A stretch of 55,117 nucleotides of DNA. Source: an uncultured Clostridia bacterium (lineage in GTDB: Bacteria > Bacillota > Clostridia > TANB77 > CAG-508). Under the pieces are notes generated by a model, which was not told the DNA's origin, did not search any database, and was given only the letters and a program-made list of their open reading frames with translations. Positions 43,109 to 46,458 of the stretch are shown one piece after another. Where the stretch lies: the NCBI GenBank assembly GCA_947632185.1, contig CANROH010000002.1, positions 1-55,117 of the forward strand, in the 5' to 3' direction. Made by a program: the position numbers and the translations under genes. Numbering within the stretch: position 1 is the first letter of the stretch; the number at the start of each line of letters is the position of its first letter.

Positions 43109-43513
43109 TTAGAAGTTTTTAGCAACACTAATGACTATTTTCCAAATAGAATAAGCACCAAAAATTACTATACCTGAAACTAAAACTCCTACTAGTTGAG
43201 TTTTTAACTTAGCCTGTGCTTCTGGTCCAGCAGTTAAATATTTTATTCCCATATATGTTGTTATAGCAACCATTACACCAGTTCCAATCAAGGTTAATAT
43301 AGATCCTAAATCAGCAAATTCTTCAACAATCTTTTCTGTTTGTATCTTACCAGTACTTTTTTCACCTTCTTCTATAAATCCACTTGCTTGCTTTTCCATT
43401 TCACTTAAAGAAATAGCTTCTACGTTATTTATAAAATTATTTGTAAAAGCCAATGCAATCAATACTGCAATTATGATTAATATCTTATTTACAAAACTTA
43501 TTTTTTTATTCAC
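43109..43513 (-). CDS. VirB2/TrbC-like pilin paralog 7 (divergent), first gene of the machinery operon
   Basis: Signal peptide (..NNVEA/ISL), a variable region, and a TM hairpin LTLIGTGVMVAITTYMGIKYLTAGPEAQAKLKTQLVGVLVSGIVIFGAY. GTG start after GGAGG. Confidence 0.55.
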   Translation of the reverse strand: MNKKISFVNKILIIIAVLIALAFTNNFINNVEAISLSEMEKQASGFIEEGEKSTGKIQTEKIVEEFADLGSILTLIGTGVMVAITTYMGIKYLTAGPEAQAKLKTQLVGVLVSGIVIFGAYSIWKIVISVAKNF

Positions 43514-43560
43514 TTATAATACCTCCGTCCATTTTGCCTAATTATACTATTATATTAATA

Positions 43561-43589
43561 ATTATACTTGAATAAATTATCTTTTTCAA
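43561..43589 (-). promoter_or_regulatory. Putative sigma-A promoter of the pilin-7/machinery operon
   Basis: The minus strand reads TTGAAA, a 17-nt spacer (aagataatttattcaag), then TATAAT. Confidence 0.5.
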
Positions 43590-43670
43590 CAATTTTATTC
43601 AATATTTGATAATTTTAACATAAATGTAATATAAGTTGTTTAACTCCAAATTTTTATGAAATTTTAATTT

Positions 43671-43707
43671 AAAATAATAAAAAGATACTAAATATACATT
43701 TAGCATC
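43671..43707 (-). terminator. Terminator after pilin paralog 6
   Basis: The minus-strand RNA stem gatgctaaat / atttagtatc (one G-U pair) is followed by tttttattatttt. Confidence 0.55.
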
Positions 43708-43757
43708 TCATTATTTTTATAAACATATTCTATTCTTGATTTTCCATGTTATGTTTA

Positions 43758-44135
43758 TTAATCTAAAACTCCAGTTAAGTCAGCTATAATTGCTACTATA
43801 TTTACAGCTCCAAATAATAATACACAACCTATAAATATTGGCATAATTGCTTTTTTAGTATCTGCTTTTTCTGATGGACTTGCTATAATATATTTAATTC
43901 CAAGCATTGTTATAACTATTAATGCAATTCCTGTACCAGCAAATTGAATTAACCCTATTACTGTGTTGATTGTTTTAATAATCCCGCTATCTGGAGCACT
44001 ACTATCTACTTTACTAGCATTTTTCATTCCACTTATAACTCCATCTAATCCTGTCTCTGTTGCATATGAAAAATTTATTCCTAATGTTAAACTAAATAAT
44101 AATACTATAATTAATAATGAAACTATCTTTTTCAT
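43758..44135 (-). CDS. VirB2/TrbC-like pilin paralog 6 (divergent)
   Basis: Signal peptide (..NFSYA/TETG) and hairpin LIQFAGTGIALIVITMLGIKYIIASPSEKADTKKAIMPIFIGCVLLFGAVNI. Start MKKIVS follows AAGGAAA; the ORF track starts at 44156. Confidence 0.6.
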   Translation of the reverse strand: MKKIVSLLIIVLLFSLTLGINFSYATETGLDGVISGMKNASKVDSSAPDSGIIKTINTVIGLIQFAGTGIALIVITMLGIKYIIASPSEKADTKKAIMPIFIGCVLLFGAVNIVAIIADLTGVLD

Positions 44136-44148
44136 AATATTTTCCTTT

Positions 44149-44625
44149 CTAATCACTACTTACAGATACATTTATTATATTCTTTATTATACTTAAAATT
44201 CCTGAAGCTCCAAATAAAATTAATGCACCTATTACATAATTCATTGCATATTTTTTTATATCAGCTCTTTCTCCTGCAGAAGCAATAAGATATTTTGCTC
44301 CAATTATCATTAATACAATTACAGCAGCTGCTGCTCCTATTAATCTTACAACATCTAATATTGCTGCCATAATCTCTTTAATATTTTGGCCAGCATCACC
44401 TTGAGTAACATCTGAACCACTAAAGTAATCTTTTACTGCTTGTGCAGATTCAGAATAAGCATCTACATCTTTAGTAGTATCTTCTGGTTTTGTACTTGTA
44501 GAATTTGTAGGTTTTGGTGGTGCTTCTATTTGTGACCTAGGTATTGCGTTAACAGTATTCATTAATGAAAACATCAAAATAAAAATAATTAATAAACATG
44601 TAAATTTAATAAAATATTTTTTCAT
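44149..44625 (-). CDS. VirB2/TrbC-like pilin paralog 5 (longest variable region)
   Basis: Signal peptide (..NTVNA/IPR), a Pro/Thr-rich variable region, and core GAKYLIASAGERADIKKYAMNYVIGALILFGASGILSII. Confidence 0.65.
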   Translation of the reverse strand: MKKYFIKFTCLLIIFILMFSLMNTVNAIPRSQIEAPPKPTNSTSTKPEDTTKDVDAYSESAQAVKDYFSGSDVTQGDAGQNIKEIMAAILDVVRLIGAAAAVIVLMIIGAKYLIASAGERADIKKYAMNYVIGALILFGASGILSIIKNIINVSVSSD

Positions 44626-44642
44626 ATAATTCCTCCAACTAA

Positions 44643-45038
44643 TTAAGAAATTGATTTAGCTATCTCATTTATTATTGATAATATTCCTGCAACACCAAAT
44701 AATATAAATGCGCCCACAACATAATTTATCGCATATTTTTTTATTTCTGCTCTTTCCCCAGGAGCAGAAATCATATATCTCATTGAAATTACTAATAGCA
44801 TAACAATTGCAATAGCTACGCATATTATTCTAAGAACAGTAATAATTTGACCTACAGAATTATTAATCATATTTTTTGCAGCTGCCATATCATTAGCAGA
44901 GTCATATGTTTCGAAATTGTTAACATCGAAATTAGAATCATCCGCTAAAACATTATTATTTGAACAATAATTTATTATAAAACTTAAGATTAAGAAAAGT
45001 ATAAAAATTATTACTATGTTTTTACAAATTTTATTCAT
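44643..45038 (-). CDS. VirB2/TrbC-like pilin paralog 4
   Basis: Signal peptide (..NNVLA/DDS) and core SMRYMISAPGERAEIKKYAINYVVGAFILFGVAGILSII. Confidence 0.65.
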   Translation of the reverse strand: MNKICKNIVIIFILFLILSFIINYCSNNNVLADDSNFDVNNFETYDSANDMAAAKNMINNSVGQIITVLRIICVAIAIVMLLVISMRYMISAPGERAEIKKYAINYVVGAFILFGVAGILSIINEIAKSIS

Positions 45039-45070
45039 TTTTATCCTCCAAGCATCTATTATTAAAATTA

Positions 45071-45451
45071 TTAAATAGCTTCAGCAAAATCACTAATTAT
45101 TCCAAGTATTGTTGTTACACCAAATAGTATTATAGCTCCTACTACATAAATTGTAGAACTTTTTTTAATATCTGCCTTTTCTCCTGGCGCTGCTACCATA
45201 TATTTTATGGCAATAACAAATAACATAAGTATAGCAACAGTAATTCCTATTATTCTAACTACAACAATAATAGTAGCCAAAGCACTCATTGTTTTACTAC
45301 TTGCTTCAGTTTTATCTTGATAATTTTTTTCTATTAAGCTTTTCATTTCAGTATCATATGTACTATCTTTAGCGTTCGCAACACTTTGTATGCTCACTAT
45401 TAAAATTAAACATATTAATATCATTATTAAAATTTTAATACATCTTTTCAT
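45071..45451 (-). CDS. VirB2/TrbC-like pilin paralog 3
   Basis: Signal peptide (..SVANA/KDS) and core AIKYMVAAPGEKADIKKSSTIYVVGAIILFGVTTILGII. Confidence 0.65.
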   Translation of the reverse strand: MKRCIKILIMILICLILIVSIQSVANAKDSTYDTEMKSLIEKNYQDKTEASSKTMSALATIIVVVRIIGITVAILMLFVIAIKYMVAAPGEKADIKKSSTIYVVGAIILFGVTTILGIISDFAEAI

Positions 45452-45475
45452 ATAAAATCCTCACATTTTTCTTAA

Positions 45476-45859
45476 TTAAAATGAAGTAGCAAATCCTTGG
45501 ATAATTGATAAAATTCCTGTAGCTGCGAACATAATAACTGCACCAACTACATAAGTTATAGCATGTTTTTTGATATCTGCTTTTTCACCTGGAGCTGATG
45601 TCATATATTTTATAGCTAATATAGTAAGCATAATAACTGCAATTCCTGCACAAATAACTTTTGCAACTGTTATTACGGTTCCAGCAATATTAGTTGCAGA
45701 ATTTACTGCTTGACTATTATTTACATTTGAATTTACTGCTTGATCAATATAATTCATCATTACACTTTCAGATGTGGCAAAAACATTTTGAATATTTATA
45801 ATTAATGACAATATACTAATAATACTAATTAATAAAAACAATTTTTTAAAGATTCTCAT
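45476..45859 (-). CDS. VirB2/TrbC-like pilin paralog 2
   Basis: Signal peptide (..QNVFA/TSE) and core AIKYMTSAPGEKADIKKHAITYVVGAVIMFAATGILSII. Confidence 0.65.
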   Translation of the reverse strand: MRIFKKLFLLISIISILSLIINIQNVFATSESVMMNYIDQAVNSNVNNSQAVNSATNIAGTVITVAKVICAGIAVIMLTILAIKYMTSAPGEKADIKKHAITYVVGAVIMFAATGILSIIQGFATSF

Positions 45860-45890
45860 GTCTCTTCCTCCATTTTATCTTATTTATTTA

Positions 45891-45919
45891 ATTATAACAT
45901 TTATATACTTTTTTTTCAA
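45891..45919 (-). promoter_or_regulatory. Putative sigma-A promoter of the pilin 2-6 operon
   Basis: The minus strand reads TTGAAA, a 17-nt spacer, then TGtTATAAT (extended -10). Confidence 0.5.
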
Positions 45920-46000
45920 TAATTTGATATTCTTACTTAAATATTAACCTATAAATTTTATTTTGTAAATATAGTTTTATTTATATTTTTTAATTTTAAA

Positions 46001-46043
46001 GCATATAAAAAAGAATGCCTTCTAGACATTCTTTTTTATATGC
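46001..46043 (-). terminator. Terminator after pilin paralog 1
   Basis: Perfect 17-bp inverted repeat gcatataaaaaagaatg / cattcttttttatatgc with a 9-nt loop. It is AU-rich and followed by a T-rich tract on the minus strand. Confidence 0.6.
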
Positions 46044-46065
46044 TTTCTTATTTTTCGCTATTAAA

Positions 46066-46458
46066 TTATTCTGTTGCATGAACCATAGTTGCAAATTTTT
46101 TAACAATTCCTAAAATACCACTAGCTGCAAATAATACTATAGCACCAACTATGTATACAACAGCATGTTTTTTGATATCTGCTTTGTCTCCAGGAGCTGC
46201 TGATATATATTTAATTGCAAGAACAATTAACATAATAACTGCAACACCTACACCAATTACTTGAACTATTGTTAATATTGATCCCATTATATTATTAACA
46301 GTATCCGCTGTTCCTGTTGAGTCTGATGCGTTTGCTGTAACAGTATCTGTATTAATATCGCCAAAATTCATATCAGCATTTACTACAACAGACATAACAG
46401 ATACAAGCATAACAGCTATTAAAGCAATAGCTAAAATTTTAATTACATTTTTTGTCAT
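46066..46458 (-). CDS. VirB2/TrbC-like pilin paralog 1 (monocistronic, candidate major pilin)
   Basis: Signal peptide (..VVVNA/DMN) and core AIKYISAAPGDKADIKKHAVVYIVGAIVLFAASGILGIV. Strong AAAGGAGG RBS, with its own promoter and terminator. Confidence 0.65.
   Translation of the reverse strand: MTKNVIKILAIALIAVMLVSVMSVVVNADMNFGDINTDTVTANASDSTGTADTVNNIMGSILTIVQVIGVGVAVIMLIVLAIKYISAAPGDKADIKKHAVVYIVGAIVLFAASGILGIVKKFATMVHATE

Follow-up and report, generated by a model that had tools for sequence, protein, structure and literature searches.

What are seven small membrane-protein genes, lying head to tail in a chromosome of a gut clostridium, and what could such a set be for? We studied them in a window of 55,117 nucleotides, the window being the whole stretch of DNA that was analysed. 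The first-pass annotation had described seven ORFs of 126-158 aa at 43109-46458 as VirB2-like pilin paralogs. All seven were found at exactly these coordinates, intact and on the minus strand.

46066..46458, minus strand: pilin no. 1, 130 aa; PF18895 39.4 bits; GGAGG ribosome-binding site (RBS)
45476..45859, minus strand: pilin no. 2, 127 aa; PF18895 33.8 bits
45071..45451, minus strand: pilin no. 3, 126 aa; PF18895 27.4 bits
44643..45038, minus strand: pilin no. 4, 131 aa; PF18895 31.7 bits
44149..44625, minus strand: pilin no. 5, 158 aa; PF18895 33.3 bits; PF04956 TrbC 29.3 bits
43758..44135, minus strand: pilin no. 6, 125 aa from ATG; PF04956 TrbC 30.7 bits; PF18895 24.5 bits
43109..43513, minus strand: pilin no. 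7, 134 aa; PF18895 28.0 bits; adjoins the PrgI-like gene

An RBS is present for all seven ORFs, with GGAGG sites in the array. The mechanical ORF of no. 6 opens at the GTG at 44156. Its start is probably the ATG at 44135, giving 125 aa, because an RBS-like AAAGGAAA lies upstream and public gene calls (P0009) use the same start.

The seven proteins share one plan, as had been claimed. Each begins with a hydrophobic stretch which, by hydropathy and motif, closes on an AXA-type signal-peptide site (VNA/D, VFA/T, ANA/K, VLA/D, VNA/I, SYA/T and VEA/I for nos 1 to 7). A variable segment of 25-55 aa follows, acidic and rich in S/T/N/D. Two more hydrophobic segments (Kyte-Doolittle) then form the predicted hairpin, with a KADIKK-type loop between the helices. 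In the AlphaFold2 model of no. 1 (pLDDT 78), a signal-peptide helix (2-26) is joined by a linker of low confidence to a hairpin of two helices (50-86/89-129).

As for family, all seven match Pfam T4SS_pilin (PF18895) or TrbC/VirB2 (PF04956), which bears out the VirB2-like assignment. Six of them pass the PF18895 gathering score of 26.6 bits, with no. 6 just below. The PF04956 search suggested in the first-pass annotation was positive for nos 5 and 6, which exceed its gathering score of 27.9 bits. NCBIfam gave weak matches to a Mycoplasma ICE pilin-like family. There are at least 1722 database homologues; among the 120 listed, PF18895 is present in nearly all, and JGI annotates one as VirB2 pilin. 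A Foldseek search of the pilin model against solved pilins returned nothing significant (best E = 2.4), the helical hairpin being a generic fold, and a PDB sequence search with a pilin matched no solved pilin. On profile evidence, the seven genes encode Sec-type preproteins of the VirB2/TrbC pilin superfamily. By the same sequence evidence the arrangement is far beyond chance, since pilin profiles match all seven and the array recurs in approximately 100 related genomes.

The pilins occupy the first 3.4 kb of a chromosomal cluster of about 21.5 kb. They lie in a T4SS operon together with PrgI, VirB4 and VirB6-like genes, a wider setting that the first-pass annotation had not recognised. Downstream of the pilins the order is PrgI/VirB3-like, TrsD/TraC-like, VirB4, VirB6-like, two unknowns, three VirB6-like and two distal genes.

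42743..43078, minus strand: PrgI-like (VirB3-like) protein, 111 aa; PF12666 PrgI 25.0 bits, just under the gathering score of 27
41477..42742, minus strand: TrsD/TraC-like protein, 421 aa; weak NCBIfam TrsD match; precomputed Pfam PF26593 TraC-like
39470..41458, minus strand: VirB4-family ATPase, 662 aa; Pfam TraG P-loop, AAA_10, DUF87
38212..39432, minus strand: VirB6-like polytopic protein, 406 aa; directly after VirB4, as on Clostridium plasmids
35468..38211, minus strand: two membrane-anchored proteins, 392 and 517 aa; conserved in related loci
26602..35453, minus strand: three VirB6-like paralogs, 1249, 885 and 799 aa; long K/A/E-rich C-terminal tails
24998..26561, minus strand: distal genes, a split gene of ~180 aa (p116 + p90) and p332; conserved at the cluster end in relatives

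We compared this cluster with the best 80 of at least 515 related VirB4 loci in a collection holding one genome per species. Their VirB4 proteins are 72-95% identical to that of the window, and gene order is colinear across the 80. The PrgI-like protein (46-87% identity) and the TrsD/TraC-like gene are present in all of them. The VirB4 ATPase matches the NCBIfam CD1110 and Mbov_0397 VirB4 families, both below cut-off, and the VirB4 of PDB 4AG5 with E = 3e-25. The 406-aa protein is a candidate pilus platform, whose VirB6 identity comes from position, topology and fold matches that are not significant (top Foldseek matches to R388 TrwI/VirB6-TrwJ stalk chains, E = 0.14-0.46). It contains a pilin-like hairpin (PF18895 E = 9e-4, hhalign probability 84%). 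Its N-domain of ~400 aa is common to the three long paralogs at 31-36% identity; related loci have two to four VirB6-like paralogs and the window has four. The 392- and 517-aa proteins have no match in Pfam, NCBIfam or PDB, and occur in 24 (p392) and 57 (p517) related loci. The split between p116 and p90 is seen by alignment to intact orthologues of 175-200 aa.

The flanks are housekeeping genes: dnaX, recR, ybaB, tadA, comEA, a PBP5-type carboxypeptidase and LytR. Neither an integrase nor element boundaries were found around the cluster. The neighbourhood of LytR, a dacF-like gene and comEA is common to the locus L054, whose VirB4 is only 79% identical. A ComEA homologue (SLBB + HHH_3) is encoded 1.2 kb upstream of pilin 1, and 7 of the 80 related loci also have it close to the array; the upstream flank varies between sublineages. 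No relaxase or coupling-protein (T4CP) domain was found in the 55-kb window, among the ORFs of at least 200 aa of the island and the named flank genes.

Carriers of the cluster are uncultured, low-GC gut Clostridia from hundreds of species. Pilin copies number 1-3 in distant relatives, 2-5 in a sister clade and 6-8 in the window's own sublineage, and copy number follows VirB4 similarity (Spearman 0.82). The same cassette, with a single pilin and a VirB4 ~40% identical, is found on the C. botulinum plasmid p12/29 and on the C. magnum chromosome, the latter with its VirB4 split and an IS-type transposase nearby. We regard it as highly probable that this is a T4SS pilin array within a chromosomally fixed T4SS.

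The copies differ in how widely they are kept. Nos 6 and 7 had been called degenerate, which does not hold: both ORFs are intact and conserved, and the no. 7 type is the PrgI-proximal pilin, immediately upstream, in 68 of 81 loci. In about 13 of the 81, no other pilin-like ORF was detected upstream of PrgI. Orthologues of no. 1 at the first position have core identities of 73-90%, and this includes species in which VirB4 identity is as low as 77-79%. Positional orthologues of no. 2 are restricted to near relatives, which also carry those of no. 3. Judged by position and sequence, the pilin no. 7 is universal and linked to the machinery, no. 1 is widely conserved, and nos 2-6 are a lineage-specific expansion.

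Conservation is also uneven within each protein. The core of nos 1-5 had been described as nearly invariant. Its loop motif IKY..APGEKADIKK is indeed strongly kept, but core identity is just 44-61% among these five, and 19-61% among all seven. The variable segment cannot be aligned between copies (3-27% identity), as the first-pass annotation had it. Positional orthologues across species have 55-90% identity in the core and 8-58% in the variable region. In the suggested dN/dS analysis the core is constrained (ω 0.22-0.33), while the variable region is near neutrality (ω 0.67-1.09); as dS is saturated (~1), these values fit relaxed constraint and diversifying selection alike. Strain-level changes, a tiny sample from contigs of ~2x coverage, are 5 non-synonymous to 1 synonymous in the variable region and 5 to 4 in the core. 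No. 5 has the longest variable segment of the seven (55 aa, S/T/D/P-rich), the lowest between-species conservation of that region (8-21%), and the strain variants P36S and P47S/E48K. By these comparisons, the hairpin cores are constrained and turnover is fast in the segment that separates the cleavage site from helix 1.

Nos 1 and 2 have a 24-nt run in common, which had been offered as a possible sign of gene conversion. The run is real (2 matches against 0 expected), but the inference is unsupported, because paralog cores within the genome are less alike than positional orthologues of other species and a long identical run occurs in only 1 of 21 paralog pairs (p = 0.021, uncorrected). In the suggested comparison among relatives, copy number varies (1-8) and the N-region turns over fast. 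We also looked for a phase-variation switch and a recombinase, and found neither. On alignment evidence the paralogs are maintained as positional orthologues across species, and the array grew by old tandem duplications.

Promoter-like sites and hairpins are located exactly in the three large intergenic gaps.

46492..46520, minus strand: promoter-like TTGAAA-17-TATAAT upstream of pilin 1; 11/12 consensus positions, consensus match only
45998..46046, minus strand: hairpin directly 3' of pilin 1; 23-bp stem, -28.1 kcal/mol, z = -9.1 against shuffles
45891..45919, minus strand: promoter-like TTGAAA-17-TATAAT with extended TG upstream of pilin 2; 11/12 positions
43671..43717, minus strand: hairpin after pilin 6, within an 88-nt stretch; minimum free energy -17.7 kcal/mol, z = -3.6
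43561..43589, minus strand: promoter-like TTGAAA-17-TATAAT upstream of pilin 7 and the machinery genes; 11/12 positions

These are the three best promoter-like sites of the region, one per large gap and all on the coding strand. The hairpin 3' of pilin 1, with arms 96% complementary, is a candidate intrinsic terminator. The promoter-like site at 45891..45919 would open a unit of pilins 2-6, for which the hairpin at 43671..43717 is the candidate terminator. No. 1 is a candidate major pilin with a predicted transcription unit of its own.

Three predicted transcription units suggest a division of labour. No. 1, probably monocistronic and with a strong promoter-like site, an RBS and a candidate terminator hairpin, would be the major subunit. 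No. 7, universal and probably co-transcribed with the machinery, would be a core or initiating subunit, and nos 2-6 would act as minor or alternative subunits, giving the pilus a varied surface. These roles are drawn solely from operon structure and conservation. In the proposed mechanism, signal peptidase I would cut the preproteins to mature pilins of ~100 aa, which would sit as hairpins in the membrane, their basic loop (KADIKK) facing the cytoplasm. They would be pulled out and assembled into a tube by the VirB4 ATPase and a VirB6-like platform; in the tube the loop would face the lumen and the acidic S/T/N/D-rich N-segment would cover the exterior. By analogy with solved pili (bioRxiv 10.64898/2025.12.18.695078), it is plausible that the variable N-segment is the exposed surface. 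Diversification for surface or receptor specificity, or a heteropolymer, is plausible as well.

The machine is most likely, by analogy with known systems, a contact or adhesion organelle or a conduit to other cells, bacterial or host, as in Bartonella Trw or the Patescibacteria, and not one for plasmid conjugation. This reading follows from the lack of a relaxase or coupling protein nearby, together with the amplification of both pilin and VirB6-like genes. Taken jointly, the subunit roles given above and a function in contact, adhesion or pilus variation are tentative, at slightly under even odds. As a whole, the pilin array of a domesticated chromosomal T4SS with the proposed function is the best explanation, with a probability of roughly 0.6.

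We consider it unlikely that the cluster is a working DNA translocator, for chromosomal conjugation, DNA export or Ced/ComB-like import. The pilins would then be a short conduit through a thick wall, and the genes for a coupling protein and a relaxase, or for uptake proteins such as ComEA and ComEC, would lie elsewhere or next door. Archaeal Ced/Ted systems use VirB2-like pili for DNA import. That parallel (PMC9905601) agrees with DNA transfer, as do the Gram-positive VirB2-like PrgF, proposed as a DNA conduit (bioRxiv 10.64898/2025.12.18.695078), the nearby ComEA homologue, and the nearest VirB4 relatives outside the lineage, which sit on Clostridium plasmids. However, comEA does not stay next to the cluster in relatives, and sublineages differ in their upstream flank. 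No relaxase or T4CP domain was found in the 55 kb of the window, though either gene could lie elsewhere in the genome. Furthermore, a plain conduit has no need of seven pilins and four VirB6-like paralogs, and amplified surface components are the hallmark of the adhesion-type Trw (PMC2883598).

It is far less probable that the cluster is what remains of an integrated conjugative element in decay, with the extra pilins as functionless, drifting duplicates. Variable regions at ω near 1, the split distal gene and the disrupted C. magnum locus would fit decay. Yet all seven ORFs are intact with RBSs, the cores are under purifying selection, positional orthologues are kept across many species, VirB4 is conserved in the best 80 of at least 515 species-level loci, and the cluster, without integrase or element boundaries, shares its neighbourhood with L054.

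Equally improbable are non-pilin two-TM peptides (holins, bacteriocin immunity proteins or membrane anchors) with a pilin likeness due to hydrophobic composition: hydrophobic hairpins do draw spurious matches, including many sub-threshold Pfam matches to unrelated membrane families and merely generic hairpins in Foldseek, but one pilin family is matched by all seven, two also pass TrbC/VirB2, the conserved charged-loop motif aligns beyond the TM segments, linkage to PrgI, VirB4 and VirB6-like genes is invariable across ~100 genomes, plasmids and another Clostridium, and no holin or immunity family, which the first-pass annotation had named as the matches to fear, was matched.

Among known systems, PrgF is a VirB2-like protein proposed to form the conduit in Gram-positive T4SSs (ter Beek et al., bioRxiv 10.64898/2025.12.18.695078). 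Like the window pilins it is small, with two TM segments and a charged loop, and in Firmicutes its gene lies beside PrgI, VirB4 and VirB6-like genes. The C. botulinum plasmid p12/29 has the same cassette order as the window and a VirB4 40% identical, and its 127-aa protein matches a pilin profile of the seven paralogs with E = 2.6e-7. These plasmid systems were judged to have one functional pilin each, with a relaxase and coupling protein for conjugation, whereas the seven pilins of the window have cleavable signal peptides and a long variable N-segment each, and are encoded on a chromosome with no relaxase or T4CP in 55 kb.

The Rickettsiales rvh T4SS belongs to host-dependent bacteria with reduced genomes; unlike the window's host these are diderm, and their system is MPF-T-derived and effector-translocating. 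It is similarly chromosomal and non-conjugative, with proliferated VirB2 and extended VirB6 paralogs, for example the VirB2 families of Anaplasma and the VirB6 expansions of Rickettsia (PMC12102498 and PMC2653234).

The closest parallels are Bartonella Trw and the pilin arrays of Patescibacteria. Trw lacks a coupling protein and has an amplified trwL (5-8 copies), and its variant pili are proposed to serve host-specific adhesion (PMC2883598). Both Trw and the window's system are conjugation-derived and chromosomally fixed, without a coupling protein (in the window, none in 55 kb). In both, the VirB2 pilin and a segment containing VirB6 have been amplified in tandem and diversify fast, and the first pilin copy stands apart from the others. 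In contrast, Bartonella is a diderm alphaproteobacterium, and its Trw is of the MPF-T class, homologous to R388, and has VirB5 (TrwJ), VirB7, VirB9 and VirB10. Recombination among copies is reported there, whereas the window has positional orthology and no sign of conversion.

Lastly, Patescibacteria (CPR) carry arrays of 2-11 tandem VirB2-like pilins with a mean identity of 25% (Quinonero-Coronel et al. 2025, PMC12102498), and a six-pilin array is essential in the epibiont Southlakia epibionticum (PMC12857230). The likeness covers a monoderm host, a small genome, a chromosomal T4SS without nearby relaxase, the gene set (VirB2-like array, PrgI/VirB3, TrsD, VirB4, VirB6; Pfam PF18895 and PF04956) and tandem, highly divergent pilins, the window copies being 22-41% identical to no. 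1. The window's host, however, is a Clostridium-type member of the Bacillota and not an ultrasmall epibiont, with a genome of ~1.8 Mb (the size of the complete relative L054) and a VirB6-like gene amplified fourfold. Pairwise VirB4 matches, as distinct from a joint phylogeny, point to domestication independent of Patescibacteria, since the VirB4 relatives found nearest, at ~40% identity, belong to plasmid-borne and chromosomal systems of Clostridium. With the window's array, tandem pilin arrays extend to ordinary Gram-positive bacteria.

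We found seven consecutive minus-strand ORFs at 46458-43109, each of 126-158 aa, numbered here from the upstream end, with no. 7 next to a PrgI-like gene. Each has a basic N-terminus, a hydrophobic stretch and an AXA-type site (VNA/D, VFA/T, ANA/K, VLA/D, VNA/I, SYA/T and VEA/I in nos. 1 to 7), and by a hydropathy scan the hydrophobic segments number exactly three in each protein (leader, TM1 and TM2). The AlphaFold2 model of no. 1 (mean pLDDT 78, from a 43-sequence alignment) contains a helical leader, a linker of low confidence (residues 27-49) and a long hairpin of helices (50-86/89-129). 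The plan of a leader and two TM helices in all seven, proposed in the first-pass annotation, is borne out by the coordinates, the sites, the hydropathy and this model. For no. 6, the most likely start is the ATG at 44135.

The same annotation described a nearly invariant core, which overstates the case, next to a variable segment that could not be aligned. Identity between paralogs is 19-61% in the 70-residue core and 3-27% in the 25-55 residues after the cleavage site. Few residues are invariant in a MAFFT alignment (Y84, A93, K96, F110 and a few others), and around them lies a conserved loop, IKY..APG(D/E)KADIKK. The variable segment is acidic in every paralog (net charge -1 to -5), with abundant S, T, N and D. 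Apart from the wording on the core, this earlier description is correct, since the ORFs, the hydropathy and the alignment agree with it.

In terms of family, these proteins belong to the VirB2/TrbC pilins, as first supposed. All seven match PF18895 (T4SS_pilin), six of them above its gathering score of 26.6 bits, and the remaining one, no. 6, passes the gathering score of PF04956 (TrbC/VirB2), which is 27.9 bits.

Profile scores of the seven ORFs (bits)
No. 1: PF18895 39.4
No. 2: PF18895 33.8
No. 3: PF18895 27.4
No. 4: PF18895 31.7
No. 5: PF18895 33.3; PF04956 29.3, above its gathering score
No. 6: PF18895 24.5, just under the gathering score; PF04956 30.7, above it
No. 7: PF18895 28.0

Weak NCBIfam matches point to a pilin-like protein of Mycoplasma ICEs. 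A profile built from the seven paralogs finds at least 1722 database proteins; of the 120 listed, nearly all carry PF18895 in precomputed annotation and almost all are unnamed, with one reported by JGI as “VirB2 component (pilin)”. Foldseek of the pilin model found no solved pilin in the PDB (best E = 2.4, non-significant, generic helical hairpins), nor did a profile search of PDB sequences, a two-helix hairpin being too generic for such searches to decide the fold. The leader, the two helices and the short charged loop expected of a pilin are all present, as seen in the hydropathy, the AXA site, the AlphaFold2 hairpin and the conserved loop. Furthermore, the array is followed directly by PrgI-like, VirB4 and VirB6-like genes, and this linkage recurs in about 100 related loci, in Clostridium magnum and on one C. 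botulinum plasmid.

On the same strand, the pilins are followed by the PrgI-like (VirB3-like) protein and a 421-aa TrsD/TraC-like protein, whose TrsD assignment is weak. The VirB4 ATPase comes next, with Pfam TraG P-loop, AAA_10 and DUF87 domains and a match to PDB 4AG5 (E = 3e-25); its best NCBIfam matches are both below cut-off (CD1110, 210 bits against 325; Mbov_0397, 197 against 590). After it are found a 406-aa polytopic protein, two membrane-anchored proteins with no assigned role (p392 and p517), three large paralogs of the 406-aa protein and two small genes at the distal end. Neither p517 nor the distal p332 matched any PDB sequence.

26602-39432, minus strand: four VirB6-like paralogs (406, 1249, 885 and 799 aa) with a common N-domain of about 400 aa

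The position and topology of these four hint at VirB6-like proteins, a weak assignment. Every one contains a pilin-like helical hairpin (WYY..R..IYIGIRMA.ST.AS.KA.YK), aligned to the pilins by hhalign with a probability of 84%. The top Foldseek matches of the 406-aa model are R388 TrwI/VirB6-TrwJ stalk chains, non-significant (E = 0.14-0.46, TM at most 0.4). Three of the four have long C-terminal tails rich in lysine, alanine and glutamate.

As for expression, the three best σ70-like sites of the region all read TTGAAA-17-TATAAT on the coding strand, a match to the consensus, and occupy the three large intergenic gaps, before pilins 1, 2 and 7. A hairpin with a 23-bp stem (-28 kcal/mol, z = -9) lies 3' of pilin 1 and a weaker one after pilin 6. 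All the genes have GGAGG-type ribosome-binding sites, and the gap pattern is also present in related loci. These signals would place pilin 1 in a transcription unit of its own, pilins 2-6 in a second and pilin 7, together with the machinery genes, in a third. A phase-variation switch was rejected, with no convincing inverted repeats for an invertible promoter beyond the terminator and no recombinase in the search.

The cluster is a fixed chromosomal locus. Both flanks consist of Bacillota-typical housekeeping genes, with holB, a signal peptidase, a two-component system, GH94, dnaX, ybaB, recR and tadA on one side and comEA, a PBP5-type carboxypeptidase, LytR and FtsW/RodA on the other. GC content is about 25% across the whole window. 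A plasmid origin of the array DNA was rejected after a megablast against PLSDB, which gave no match. No relaxase or coupling-protein (T4CP) domain was found in any ORF scanned within the 55-kb window, and no integrase was found in it.

Several features of the neighbourhood were considered separately.

47616-48248, minus strand: ComEA-type DNA-binding competence protein (SLBB and HHH_3), 1.2 kb upstream of the array
46707-47528, minus strand: 273-aa multi-TM protein with a weak DUF1385 match and an HSAEH motif, in the interval from comEA to pilin 1, with a terminator-like hairpin of its own
26045-26561, minus strand: ORFs of 116 and 90 aa, overlapping, which correspond to the two halves (N and C) of one gene of 175-200 aa in relatives
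23186-24538: G5-glucosaminidase
14494-15715, plus strand: PGA_cap (capsule synthesis) domain split over two adjacent ORFs (profile positions 2-133 and 190-255)
5447-13460, minus strand: two giant ORFs (1310 and 1364 aa, 14-nt overlap) with one Glycoamylase domain split between them, preceding GH94 supersandwich and catalytic domains

None of the 80 related loci has the DUF1385-like gene, which is thus a genome-specific insertion outside the system. comEA is a mere neighbour, near the array in only 7 of 80 related loci; the comEA/dacF-like/LytR neighbourhood is common to a few related species, including the one with a complete genome (OZ006973.1), and not to most. Upstream flanks differ between sublineages, and this lack of conservation places the edge of the system at the first pilin. 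At the other end, the glucosaminidase was rejected as a conserved VirB1 analogue, as it is absent from related loci reaching beyond p332. The split 116/90-aa gene at the distal end is either a frameshift or pseudogene here or an assembly error. The giant pair looks like one frameshifted gene for a glucan-phosphorylase or glucan-synthase-type protein of about 2670 aa, and the split PGA_cap domain is possibly another frameshift.

Across 1-55117, the minus strand carries almost all genes. GC skew is negative, except for small patches near 13-16 kb and 48-50 kb where it is briefly near zero or slightly positive. The complete related genome (1.8 Mb) has the locus at 127-149 kb, in the vicinity of dnaX and recR. 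Such a strand bias and position may indicate an origin-proximal locus, as reported for Patescibacterial T4SSs.

When a collection limited to one genome per species was searched with VirB4, at least 515 related loci came to light. The best 80 of these have 72-95% identity. Their sources are all MAGs of uncultured Clostridia from the gut (Candidatus Scatovivens, Clostridium sp. CAG:354 and UBA/UMGS bins among them), obtained from human, mouse, rabbit, ruminant and bird samples, and one of them is a complete 1.8-Mb chromosome. We take the GTDB order of these organisms to be TANB77. These loci keep one gene order, running from the pilins to p332. The layout recurs, with 2-5 pilins, in a sister clade whose VirB4 is 65% identical. 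In this clade (loci L089-L104 and L153-L162), the PrgI-adjacent pilin has 200-240 aa, against about 130 aa in the clade of the window, and 1-4 ordinary pilins lie upstream of it; the long form is also present in loci L029-L031.

Among the VirB4 sequences compared, the nearest ones identified outside the lineage are from a Clostridium chromosome and plasmids, with 40-41% identity. The same cassette with a single pilin-like gene is found on the C. magnum chromosome and on C. beijerinckii and C. botulinum plasmids (VirB4 about 40%), with genes annotated only as “hypothetical” or “DUF87”. Two of these single genes, each upstream of PrgI-like, TrsD-like, VirB4 and VirB6-like genes, are the following.

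7105-7488 of locus L084: pilin-like gene, 127 aa, C. botulinum plasmid p12/29 (NZ_KT897275.1)
4676-5077 of locus L083: pilin-like gene, 133 aa, C. magnum DSM 2767

In C. magnum, the VirB4 gene is broken into two ORFs, with an IS-type transposase close by. Scans with two distant VirB4 representatives gave no match linking the cluster to Patescibacteria. The single-pilin relatives on Clostridium plasmids suggest that the cluster may have originated within Clostridia.

The number of pilins upstream of PrgI tracks relatedness, measured as VirB4 identity (Spearman 0.82).

Pilins upstream of PrgI, by VirB4 identity to the window
89% or more: 6-8 pilins
82-89%: 3-8 pilins
76-82%: 1-7 pilins (median 3)
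70-76%: 1-3 pilins

In close species, the best match of each window paralog is the pilin at the same position, with a core identity of 55-90%, above that of paralogs within a genome. The array is therefore old and not homogenised. Gene conversion had been proposed from identical DNA runs, and the 24-nt run common to nos. 1 and 2 does exist. A permutation test on the longest identical run singled out only 1 of 21 pairs (p = 0.021, uncorrected) and paralogs are less similar than orthologues, which speaks against the proposal. Type 7 adjoins PrgI in 68 of 81 loci, and in some loci no other pilin-like ORF was detected. The core of type 1, the pilin in first position, is still 73-82% identical in species where VirB4 is 77-79%, and types 2-6 are limited to near relatives. 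From this pattern, nos. 6 and 7, initially called degenerate, are better described as divergent.

Rates are strongly uneven along the cluster. Against the closest species, identity is 93-94% for VirB4, 77-86% for PrgI, 55-90% for pilin cores and 8-58% for variable segments; the VirB6-like proteins are also fast-evolving, at about 55% where VirB4 is 94%. Nei-Gojobori estimates for positional orthologues give ω of 0.22-0.33 in cores and 0.67-1.09 in variable segments, where, with dS saturated at about 1, a value near 1 does not separate relaxed from diversifying selection. Among near-identical strains (four low-coverage contigs, 99.4-99.7%), unique changes are 5 non-synonymous to 1 synonymous in variable segments and 5 to 4 in cores, too few for a test; they hint at a strain-level excess of non-synonymous changes in the variable segments. 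With dS saturated and so few strain-level changes, positive selection on this segment is not demonstrated.

From T4SS biology (10.64898/2025.12.18.695078, PMC12857230), the prepilins would be exported by Sec and then cleaved by signal peptidase I. By analogy with established systems, the mature pilins would rest in the membrane as hairpins with the basic loop on the cytoplasmic side, be extracted by VirB4 and stack on a VirB6-like platform. The loop would then line the lumen, and the N-segment would face outwards. Operon structure and conservation suggest that no. 1 may be the major subunit, no. 7 a core or initiator subunit, and nos. 2-6 surface variants.

As for function, we favour a contact, adhesion or conduit organelle rather than conjugation, because the window has no relaxase or T4CP and its amplified pilin and VirB6-like genes match Bartonella Trw and the Patescibacterial T4SS. 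The main rival is a machine serving DNA transfer or uptake. The VirB4 of the cluster is 40% identical to those of C. beijerinckii and C. botulinum plasmids; Gram-positive plasmid or ICE conjugative T4SSs (MPF-FATA/FA) carry relaxase and T4CP on a mobile element, a pair absent within the window.

Returning to the organelle, we tentatively propose (probability roughly 0.3) that a large, uncultured lineage of small-genome gut Clostridia turned a plasmid-type T4SS, by domestication, into an organelle encoded in the chromosome and lacking a coupling protein, building variant pili from seven pilins and four VirB6-like platforms, for an obligate or habitual association with partner bacteria or the host mucosa. 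If true, Gram-positive bacteria would have their own, independent counterpart to the T4SS of Patescibacterial epibionts and to Bartonella Trw, and this could help explain the resistance of the lineage to cultivation.

Tandem VirB2 arrays have precedents in Bartonella, Anaplasma and Patescibacteria. For Gram-positive conjugative plasmids, the first report of VirB2-like proteins is a preprint from December 2025 (10.64898/2025.12.18.695078), and a review of the same month considers Patescibacteria unique among monoderms in their potential for conjugative-type pili. In our literature search, we found no description of a multi-pilin T4SS, relaxase-less in the window and chromosomally fixed in a large Bacillota lineage, combined with co-amplified VirB6-like genes and single-pilin Clostridium plasmid relatives. 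The locus adds a multi-pilin, apparently relaxase-less T4SS fixed in the chromosomes of hundreds of gut Clostridia species, whose hosts are humans, rodents, rabbits, ruminants and chickens. Alongside Bartonella, Anaplasma and Patescibacteria, it would be a further case in which a domesticated conjugation machine has amplified and diversified its surface components, and the four could then be compared directly. It also offers definite candidates for a role in cell contact in an abundant, uncultured gut lineage, and a natural 1-to-8-copy series for asking what role extra pilins have.

Among known systems, the Patescibacterial type has a chromosomal VirB2 array with PrgI/VirB3, TrsD, VirB4 and VirB6 and no relaxase nearby. 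The same set is found here, TrsD and VirB6 weakly, but the host is not a Patescibacterium: all related genomes are named Clostridia, Clostridium or Candidatus Scatovivens, and the flanking genes are of Bacillota type. Patescibacterial pilin arrays have 2-11 genes (PMC12102498), and in an epibiont the array is essential (PMC12857230). With Bartonella Trw, which forms variant pili for host-specific adhesion (PMC2883598), the window shares tandem amplification of pilin and VirB6 segments (seven and four genes) and the lack of a coupling protein. Unlike the Trw/R388 (MPF-T) gene set, it yielded no VirB5, B7, B9, B10 or B11 domains and is of monoderm type; the resemblance to Bartonella Trw is functional and evolutionary, and not one of family membership.
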